This document shows positions 53,601 through 56,027 of a stretch of DNA of 64,000 bases, piece by piece; position 1 is the stretch's first letter, and the number at the start of each line of letters is the position of its first letter. This DNA is from Escherichia coli (GTDB taxonomy: Bacteria; Pseudomonadota; Gammaproteobacteria; Enterobacterales; Enterobacteriaceae), in the NCBI RefSeq assembly GCF_001677475.2, contig NZ_CP015229.1; one strand, written 5' to 3'. The position numbers are program-made.

Positions 53601-56027
53601 CTTGCAAGAAGGCAAAAATAAACGCACCGATAATCATAATATGCGTCAGGGGGATTTTCCTTTGCTCCTTCATTTTAAATAACCCACAAACTGACCTTCC
53701 TTCATTAAGGCGACTTTTCCCGTGTGGTGATAAACAATGACGTTATAAAGACCTGACTGATAAACAGTGGCATCTTTATTGTCTTCATCAATTGCACATA
53801 ATGAATCATTGAGATAAGCAAAGTTCTTACTGCTCATTCTAAAGGTCATGCCAAATCCTTTATAAATGGCTTTCTTTGCCGCCTGGGCATGTTGTGCGGC
53901 TTCTGCATTTTTAAATGCCTGCGCCTCGGATGCACTTAAAATAGCCGTCTGACGCTGTTGTTCTGCGAGATAACAGGTGTCATGGCTGACGCCCTGCGCC
54001 TGGCAATCTGCGATGCGGGAAGTGGGTGAACTACAGCCAGCCAGTAATATAACCGCCAGCAGGGAAAACGATTTAATGGAACTATTCATCATTGTTAACC
54101 TTAAATAATGTACAAATTAATGAAGAGGTGAAACCCGGCAAGCTTCCTTGCTCTTATTTATATTGAGGATTGGAATATTAGAAAGAATATCCCACGCCGA
54201 CACCCGCGCCGAAATCAGATTGCGTATCCGCAGAGACACCGGCTTTAATCACGGTATGCGTTCCGGCATTAAAAGATGTTCCTACAGACACCGCAGATTC
54301 ACCGTTGAACGTTCCCGCTCCCGCTGACACCATCATCAAGTCACCGGTTTTCACCTGTGGTTGTGAGGCGATAGCGATGGCAGATGCAGTTCCCGCATTG
54401 GCTTCTTTACGATTGTCCTCAACTTCGTTTTTCAGAGAATCGAAATGGTTATTGAGCGTGTTAATTTGTTGGCTGTTATCTGCGACCCGTTTTTGCGTGT
54501 TGGTTAACTGTTGCTGCGTTTGTGCGGAATCTTGTCTCAGACTTTCAATTTGCTCATGTGCCTGGACAGACTTCTGCGCCAGACTTTGCATTTGTTTATC
54601 GTATTGAGCCCTTTCTTTTTGCTGTTGTGCTGCCACATCGGTTGTCAGTGCATTCATTTTCTGCCCTTGTTCCGTGGTAGTGCGCTGAATAGCCTCATTT
54701 TGAGCCGCCAGTCTGGCATTAATCATCTCCTGATAATGCGCAGTATTTTGCGTATCTCCAGTCGCGGCGAGCGTTTTTTGTGTGGCTACGATCTGCGCCT
54801 GTTGCTCTGTAATTTGCGTTTGCTGGGCATCAGTTACCGCAGACTGTCGGGCGTTGATCATGCTCTGATAACGGGCTGGTGTCTGTGCATCACCTGTAGC
54901 GGCAACGGTTTTTTGTCCTGCGTCAGGATCTGTCTGGACAGTGGGAGTCTGAGTGGTATCAGGTGTTTCAGAAGGGATGTAGTGATGTTCAGTCAAATAG
55001 GTATACGCAGCGGGGCTGTTGTCTGTGCGTTCTAAAAAGCGGGTAATCTTCTGCTCAATCTCCGATTGCGACATGCCAGAGTTAATGGCTGAAAGCTCTG
55101 TTGCCGCCGCTTCAATGGTATCACCAGCTAAAACAACAGGGCTGGATGTTGCTGAAATTATGAGTGCCAGTAAAGCTACGTTTACAGTTTTCATTCATTT
55201 TCTCTTGTTCAAAATAAGTCGCACTAATGTTTCTATAAGAAACAAATAATATTATTTTAAGAAATAAACTACGTTGCAATTTAATCGAAATTTACGCCGC
55301 CATTTGTGTGATGTAAAGCGCATTTTTGTCTGGTGTAAGCGTAAACACCATCAATAAGAAACAAAAATGGTTTCTTATATAAATAAAAAAGGAAATCATT
55401 TCGTGCTCTTTCAATGTAAAAAAGAGTAAAGGCTTGTTTTGATAAGCGAAATAAATTCTGTTTCTGGACTAAACGTGAACCGGTTCCTGATGTGTGTTAA
55501 AATGCGTTTCTTTGATAAATCTCAATTTTTAAGAGGTTTACGCCAGGCAGGAAAATTTAAATGAATGAATTTGAGAAGATTTTTAATGAAATGAATCTGG
55601 ACCGGGCATTGCTACCGATCCTTTTTCGTTCGAACCGGTCAACAGTGTGGAAATATTTAAGTGGCGATAGTACGGCTCCTGCCTCAGCTATGTCACTGAT
55701 TATGCTGTTGCAGTTAATCCAGAAACGAAACCCCGATCTGTTAGCCGAATGGTTAACGCTTTCTGATTTCACCATTCCGCCAGAAGTTTACCTGGACCAG
55801 CCTGATTACTGGAAAGGGTGGGTGTATACGCAACACAAGGTCAATAAAAACGTCCTGGAATATCTAAAAAAACATTATCCGGATGAAGACCAAAAAAACA
55901 TGAATAAAGGTAGTGACGAGTAATTTGCCAATGCCAGTTAATATAGCGGAGGCGGCCTACGATTCGGGCGCAGACTTCCAGGCATGATAAGACGCGTCAG
56001 CGTCGCATCAGGCGTCGGTGCATAACC

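Follow-up and report, generated by a model that had tools for sequence, protein, structure and literature searches.

The subject of this analysis is the intergenic region between two divergent genes of a chromosomal islet of Escherichia coli (NCBI RefSeq assembly GCF_001677475.2, contig NZ_CP015229.1), located in a stretch of 64,000 nucleotides that we refer to as the window. The islet lies between cueR and ybbJ, with qmcA and fetA also among its flanking genes, and is O-island 29 of O157:H7. Of 5426 complete E. coli genomes, 1347 carry the islet and 1413 carry the intergenic region. A first-pass annotation of the window had proposed two operator-like dyads in this region, which is bordered by z0639, encoding a protein with a YadA anchor, and z0640, encoding a small helix-turn-helix (HTH) protein:

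53470-54092, minus strand: genes of a 140-residue lipoprotein (z0638) and of a 67-residue membrane protein, downstream of the adhesin gene z0639 and in the same orientation
54178-55194, minus strand: z0639 ("gmrA"), 338 residues with signal peptide, coiled-coil stalk and YadA anchor, a candidate regulated target
55228-55244, no strand: dyad 1, also operator O1a, TGTTTCTATAAGAAACA, with 7-bp arms and a 3-nt spacer
55354-55378, no strand: dyad 2, ATAAGAAAC-AAAAATG-GTTTCTTAT, with 9-bp arms and a 7-nt spacer
55561-55923, plus strand: z0640 (as named in EDL933), 120 residues, XRE/Cro-type HTH with an extra C-terminal helical part, the candidate binder

Both dyads are present as the annotation had described them, with the same arms and spacers, in an AT-rich setting between the two genes (366 bp, 30.6% GC); they were said there to lie about 125 bp apart, and the distance is 126 bp between their starts and 130 bp between their centres. 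The annotation had further taken them to share the half-site GTTTCTT and had suggested binding by the same dimer at two spacings. A half-site is indeed shared, but it is the hexamer GTTTCT that the four arms have in common; the left arm of dyad 1 reads GTTTCTA. The polarity of the two dyads is opposite, with half-sites pointing inward in dyad 1 (GTTTCT>..<AGAAAC) and outward in dyad 2 (AGAAAC..GTTTCT). A rigid symmetric dimer therefore cannot use both, and we rejected the idea of one dimer at two spacings while keeping that of a single sequence-specific binder. Two further plus-strand copies of GTTTCT, at 55460 and 55506, had been overlooked.

The possibility that these are chance palindromes in AT-rich DNA had been raised at the outset, and on one criterion taken alone that caution was fair, since at least two perfect dyads sharing a 6-mer occur in 3.4% of dinucleotide-preserving shuffles of the region. 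The count of the hexamer itself speaks against chance: GTTTCT/AGAAAC occurs six times in the 366 bp, where 0.30 are expected, and this count was reached in none of 5000 shuffles. Across the whole window GTTTCTW occurs nine times (10.7 expected), five of them within the intergenic region, and is at background elsewhere.

Arms and spacers also differ in conservation. Among five Escherichia sequences, all 12 arm columns of dyad 2 are invariant, against 2 of 7 spacer columns (Fisher P=0.0018) and 88 of 153 remaining intergenic columns (Fisher P=0.0036); in dyad 1, 11 of 12 arm columns and none of the three spacer columns are invariant. In a separate alignment of nine Escherichia variants with 86-98% identity, the dyad-2 arms are invariant around six spacer sequences, every one 7 nt long. 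The dyad-1 spacer varies between ATA, TAT and AAT in Escherichia at a constant 3 nt. Constant arms around spacers that vary at fixed length are the classic footprint expected of a protein site.

The signal extends to other genera. Dyad 2 is retained in Symbiopectobacterium and, as GAAAC-N7-GTTTT, in Pseudocitrobacter, and the GTTTC of the dyad-1 left arm is found in nearly all genera. AGAAAC/GTTTCT is the top enriched 6-mer among nine clade representatives (44 observed, 2.75 expected, z=24.6), and different genera have GTTTC at recurring distances from the start codon of the adhesin gene (35, 57, 79, 164 on the minus strand, 176, 266 and 312). Allowing two mismatches at most, the inverted form GTTTCT-N3-AGAAAC is present in 19 of 21 regions (0.037 per shuffled region); the everted form GAAAC-N7-GTTTC, with at most one mismatch, is present in 15 of 21 (0.019 per shuffled region). 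Hexamer enrichment, the contrast between arms and spacers, and positions recurring across genera together refute the chance reading, to which we give next to no credence; it is conservation that settles the matter. The dyads and GTTTCT sites are real, non-random and conserved.

In several lineages (for example L009, L011, L005 and E1V33), GTTTCT-N3-AGAAAC is followed after 7 nt by a second GTTTCT-N3-AGAAAC. This suggests that the operator is a 15-bp GTTTCT-N3-AGAAAC arranged as tandem pairs whose centres are separated by 22 bp (15 + 7), about two helical turns. The recognition unit would be the hexamer GTTTCT and the full form GTTTCT-(ATA/TAT)-AGAAAC, an inverted repeat. Dyad 1, with the perfect 15-bp core GTTTCT-ATA-AGAAAC at 55229-55243, would be the one perfect operator, and dyad 2 would consist of the facing inner arms of two neighbouring operators, O2a and O2b. 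The further putative operators and the two predicted promoters among them are:

55251-55265, no strand: O1b, a degenerate second operator, ATTATT-TTA-AGAAAT, 8/12, 22 bp from O1a
55289-55317, minus strand: candidate sigma-70 promoter of the YadA-anchor operon, TTTACA-N17-TAAATT, from a consensus scan; predicted start at about 55282
55348-55362, no strand: O2a, right arm only, left arm 2/6
55370-55384, no strand: O2b, GTTTCT-TAT-ATAAAT, 10/12
55438-55452, no strand: O3a, weak, 7/12, in a third double unit (55438-55474)
55460-55474, no strand: O3b, GTTTCT-GGA-CTAAAC, 10/12
55495-55503, plus strand: extended -10 element TGtTAAAAT of z0640; predicted start at about 55510
55506-55520, no strand: O4, GTTTCT-TTG-ATAAAT, 10/12, overlapping the predicted z0640 transcription start

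The tandem-operator model would explain a 37-nt direct repeat (55232-55268 and 55351-55387) that was found mechanically. Scored as a composite 37-bp double operator, the region gives 20/24 at 55229 (55229-55265), 18/24 at 55348 and 17/24 at 55438, compared to a shuffle maximum that averages 13.7; the three positions are also top-scoring in other Escherichia, and two of them in other genera. The model predicts four distances between close pentamers, and 13 of the 22 such pairs are at one of these; random placement would give 1.1, and the observed number was reached in none of 2000 trials. The O1b position scores 11/12 in L009 and 10/12 in L017 and L028. In O2b the outer arm is partly kept (ATAAAT, 4/6; AGAAAT in E. 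whittamii). The third double unit contains an everted GAAAT-N7-GTTTC (55448-55464), whose GTTT at 55460-55463 is invariant and extends to a full GTTTCT in 7 of 10 aligned regions. At O4, GTTTCTTTGA is kept in nearly all lineages.

Binding by a nucleoid protein had been offered as an alternative, and we considered one (H-NS, Fis or IHF) that would bind these sites and silence an AT-rich, horizontally acquired islet. It would fit the base composition, with 31% GC in the intergenic region, 38-50% in the islet and 52-59% in its flanks, and also the response of z0639 to temperature, pH and osmolarity (PMC5826968). Responses of this kind are typical of H-NS targets, and H-NS could well be an additional binder here. 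A nucleoid protein leaves unexplained, though, the conservation of one hexamer next to variable spacers: neither the invariant, G/C-containing arms with AT-rich spacers of varying sequence and fixed length nor the 22/10/12-nt phasing of the hexamer would follow from it. To our knowledge, judged by inspection, the dyads also fall outside the Fis and IHF consensus. As an account of the GTTTCT sites we consider it very unlikely.

Both predicted promoters are conserved. Upstream of the z0640 start codon, TGnTAnnAT occurs in 15 of 16 loci, including those of homologues with 45% identity, at an offset of 45-69 nt depending on the lineage, and the element at 55495-55503 marks the deepest conservation in the right half of the region. 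The most conserved block of the left half is 55289-55317, with TAnnnT kept in every lineage. An alternative minus-strand promoter, TTGCAA-N17-AATAAT (55279-55251), which would place dyad 1 at +1, was rejected; its hexamers are not conserved.

Relative to the predicted adhesin-operon promoter, O1b would lie at about +24, O1a at about +46, O2a at about -73 and O2b at about -95. Operators bracketing the promoter in this way would suit repression by roadblock or looping. On the extended -10 promoter of z0640, O3b would be centred at about -43 and O4, which begins 3 nt past the extended -10 element, at about +3, a placement suited to autoregulation. Operators that flank one predicted promoter and cover the predicted start of the other are the usual layout of repression combined with autoregulation. 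By analogy to lambda cI at OR2, the -43 site O3b could instead activate.

With a start at about 55282, O1a and O1b would be transcribed, and the elements might then act in RNA, as hairpins or as protein-binding AGAAAC repeats in the adhesin 5' leader. The predicted fold of the leader contains a single clean hairpin, formed by dyad 1. Against this, leader folds do not exceed shuffles in stability (z = -0.99 and 0.15), three Escherichia variants have AGCAAC in place of AGAAAC with no compensating change in the opposite arm, and dyad 2, O3 and O4 lie upstream of both predicted transcripts or at a promoter. Rfam searches yielded no family match in the intergenic region. We regard an RNA function as highly improbable.

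Other signals overlap this layout. A perfect CpxR-type box, GTAAAAAAGAGTAAA (GTAAA-N5-GTAAA), lies at 55419-55433, its centre about 84 nt upstream of the predicted z0640 start; in nine loci, two of them at 45% protein identity, such a box (at least 9/10) precedes the extended -10 element by a constant distance of about 79 nt. At 55512-55525, overlapping O4, the palindrome TTGATAAATCTCAA matches TTGAT-N4-ATCAA at 9 of 10 positions. In most loci this FNR-type box stands 17-20 nt downstream from where the extended -10 element begins, and L009 and L014 have it as a 10/10 match; FNR could bind it, or it could serve the HTH protein as operator. The CpxR and FNR consensus sequences are given in PMC9600279 and PMC5352689.

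Three further features were noted in the region. A 20-codon upstream open reading frame (ORF; MRFFDKSQFL...), overlapping the conserved GTTTCTTTGATAAATCTCAATTTT and with its ATGA end at the start of z0640, was rejected as a peptide: it has an early TAA in the Pseudocitrobacter clade, and in L004, L005 and Symbiopectobacterium it has no start codon. What is conserved here is therefore the DNA. Between the adhesin promoter block and dyad 2, an additional palindrome, TGGTGT-AAGCGTAA-ACACCA (55331-55350), has a core, TGTAAGCG, that is invariant in the nine Escherichia variants; the palindrome is not kept in other genera. Finally, a perfect 11-nt inverted repeat, TTCATTCATTT (55190-55200) and AAATGAATGAA (55559-55569), spans the start codons of the two divergent genes, both of which start in the context AAATGAATGAA, in Escherichia only.

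The candidate binder is the product of z0640. It has the five-helix bundle fold of XRE/Cro-C1 proteins, with helix 2, a turn and helix 3. Across 22 family members, Pfam detected the MqsA HTH in five (best 2.4e-5), Xre-like-HTH in four (3.7e-5), HTH_3 in three (2.5e-4) and HTH_26 in two. HigA2 was the top match in Foldseek, where P2 C was also among the matches. A first AlphaFold model, built from 12 close sequences, was poor (pLDDT 59.8) and was not used. The 120-residue protein has an HTH fold and is the only recognisable DNA-binding protein of O-island 29, and the conserved inverted repeats next to its gene would be suitable for binding by a dimer. We lean towards reading the GTTTCT array as tandem operators of a local XRE-type regulator, with the neighbouring 120-residue protein, which the first-pass annotation had also suggested, as the likely binder. 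The identity of the binder, like the transcription starts and the direction of regulation, is inferred from sequence.

Relatives of this protein are rare. A search of 5.8 billion proteins gave 21 clusters, and one of 1.84 billion gave 23 representatives of the family (E<=0.001). Only 4 of about 100,000 species-representative genomes carry the family (Escherichia sp. E1V33, E. whittamii, Pseudocitrobacter and Ca. Symbiopectobacterium), and a scan of metagenomes with the DNA pattern added two loci. A family-profile match to the 2772-residue protein P0028 was rejected as a type IX secretion repeat adhesin, the match looking compositional. Phage and plasmid collections held no real homologues, two "plasmid" matches being 4.9-Mb chromosomes filed as plasmids.

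Gene order is in agreement with a local regulator. In 12 of the 15 distinct loci examined, down to 45% protein identity, the HTH gene and a YadA-anchor gene diverge from an intergenic region that measures about 290-380 bp. Three loci depart from this pattern: a Symbiopectobacterium locus without a YadA-anchor call, a metagenomic contig with an 834-bp uncalled gap, and L021.

Several points weigh against this interpretation. The 120-residue query by itself reached only E=0.08 and 13.5 bits (cutoff 30), to the HTH part of Pfam MqsA_antitoxin, and had no NCBIfam match. Both transcription starts are derived from promoter hexamers only. Several operators carry one weak arm (O2a, left arm 2/6; O3a, 7/12). 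The tests of the model were post hoc, with the same sequences used to build and to test it, and their P-values are therefore optimistic. Outside Escherichia, dyad partners shift or decay while single plus-strand GTTTC sites persist, which makes possible a reading as monomer sites, as direct repeats or, more loosely, as hexamer sites in phase. Retention of the motif across genera would also be expected from a conserved host regulator.

Such a regulator, an Enterobacterales host factor that binds the GTTTCT sites in place of the 120-residue protein, is the main rival and in our view unlikely; z0640 would then use another site, for example TTGAT-N4-ATCAA at its own promoter. The identical hexamer in Escherichia, Pseudocitrobacter, Symbiopectobacterium and metagenomic lineages is as expected for a factor shared by the hosts, the conserved CpxR-like and FNR-like matches make it plausible that host factors act in the region, and the deletion of z0640 has no reported phenotype. 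Against a host factor stands the background level of the motif in the rest of the 64-kb window. Moreover, TTTCTG-type repeats stay with the HTH gene in loci at 45% identity; L021, with a 22%-identical HTH gene and no adhesin gene, lacks GTTTCT and has TAGCT-type repeats instead. We know of no E. coli regulator whose consensus fits GTTTCT-N3-AGAAAC or the everted N7 form, having compared by eye the RcsB/RcsAB box, PhoP, OmpR, CpxR, Lrp, Fis, IHF, Cra and other LacI-type proteins, EvgA, ArcA, UvrY and the LysR-type T-N11-A.

The searchable literature gave no account of the control of this intergenic region or of binding by the 120-residue protein, and on z0640 only a remark of "no motility phenotype": its deletion did not reproduce the motility phenotype of z0639 (PMC5826968). 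This result weighs against an essential activator role of z0640.

Under the proposed arrangement, z0639 and the two genes downstream would be the candidate targets; z0638 and the 67-residue gene probably form one operon with the adhesin gene, and the order of adhesin, lipoprotein and small-protein genes is kept in other genera. The z0639 product matches Pfam YadA_anchor at residues 279-338 (E=6e-12, 45.9 bits, cutoff 22.7) and has weak coiled-coil-type matches at residues 104-271. With a signal peptide at its N-terminus (MKTVNVALLALIISATSSPVVLA), its stalk and its C-terminal YadA-type anchor, it has the build of a trimeric autotransporter adhesin; no head domain was recognised.

The same gene has been published as gmrA, its product being described as a transcription activator of fliA that binds the fliA promoter in electrophoretic mobility shift assays and in chromatin immunoprecipitation with quantitative PCR (PMC5826968). 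The study also found z0639 transcription to depend on temperature, pH and osmolarity (PMC5826968). The published deletion-primer arms for gmrA map to 54140-54177 and 55195-55233, flanking the 338-residue ORF, and a published z0640 primer arm maps to 55523-55560, immediately before the 120-residue ORF. GmrA itself might be thought to bind the intergenic sites and to autoregulate, given its reported binding to the fliA promoter (PMC5826968), whose region carries one GCAGAAACGG. We find this hard to credit: this is a protein with signal peptide, coiled-coil stalk and outer-membrane anchor, neither Pfam nor NCBIfam detected a DNA-binding domain in it, and a single pentamer in 325 bp is near chance. 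With only one GAAAC, the O157 fliA promoter was also rejected as a second target of the GTTTCT binder.

Further observations concern the islet and its relatives, for which L003-L005, L009, L010 and L021 were compared with positions 53470-55950 of the window. The module occupies different junctions of one neighbourhood: cueR/ybbJ in Escherichia, qmcA/fetA in Pseudocitrobacter, and beside ybbN in others. In L021 the lipoprotein and small-protein genes are present and the adhesin gene is absent. E. coli strains differ in the length of the adhesin (338, about 471 and about 717 residues; L024 1094-2527, L026 356-2527). In L024 and L026, RefSeq annotates it from a downstream start, which leaves false "intergenic" gaps of 0.7-1.5 kb, and the open frame extends up to the same start as in the window. 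Downstream of z0640, before the convergent ybbJ, are repetitive extragenic palindromic (REP) elements at 55981-56058 and 56081-56147 (Rfam naRNA4, 74 bits, minus strand); 160 bp of these match tens of places in nearly every E. coli genome. Elsewhere in the window, a perfect GTTTCTGGCAGAAAC, the 15-bp inverted repeat of dyad 1, occurs at 4905-4919 within a coding sequence (4724-5101), which we take from position and sequence to be ybaN. It encodes RFWQK in this 125-residue inner-membrane protein. The expectation for 64 kb is about 0.004 matches of this kind; the occurrence is probably a coincidence of the coding sequence.

The arrangement resembles several known systems. The best sequence- and fold-level neighbours of the 120-residue protein are the antitoxins MqsA and HigA, whose binding sites, in their own promoters, are short palindromes with 2-4 bp at the centre. 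Unlike in these systems, there is no adjacent toxin gene: the neighbours are the divergent adhesin operon upstream and ybbJ downstream, no small ORF is coupled to the gene, and the zinc-binding N-terminal domain of MqsA is absent. The C proteins of restriction-modification systems (C.Esp1396I, C.AhdI, C.PvuII) bind C-box pairs 15 bp apart centre to centre, whereas the spacing here is 22 bp, with three pairs and a single site spread over 290 bp and two divergent promoters; the partner is an adhesin-type operon, and the protein, at 120 residues, has an extra C-terminal part. No methyltransferase or endonuclease gene was found in the islet or in the relatives' loci.

The repressor C of phage P2 shares the XRE-like fold and the 22-bp spacing; its sites, two helical turns apart, are bound cooperatively by two dimers (PMC2995052). 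The P2 sites are non-palindromic direct repeats, whereas the best sites here are inverted repeats, and our search of phage collections revealed no phage context. SinR of Bacillus subtilis offers a precedent for a 7-bp site used in several numbers and orientations (PMC3163267). As for anti-CRISPR-associated (Aca) proteins, we found no anti-CRISPR gene and no phage match, the context being chromosomal between cueR and ybbJ. Since neither a toxin gene, a restriction-modification system nor an anti-CRISPR gene adjoins it and no phage context was found, we place the protein in none of these groups, whose fold it shares.

O-island 29 is carried by about a quarter of complete E. coli genomes, among them O157:H7, enteropathogenic E. 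coli E2348/69 and numerous extraintestinal strains, and z0639 has been published as a motility regulator that responds to temperature, pH, osmolarity and host cells. In its sequence features the published GmrA matches an outer-membrane trimeric autotransporter, and the recognisable DNA-binding protein is its unstudied neighbour z0640. The control of z0639 was previously undescribed, and our analysis supplies defined operator sequences and two predicted promoters for it. The arrangement is an ordinary regulator-operator one in kind, of value for this locus and not as a concept: it would be a local switch of a familiar type, newly described for this island.

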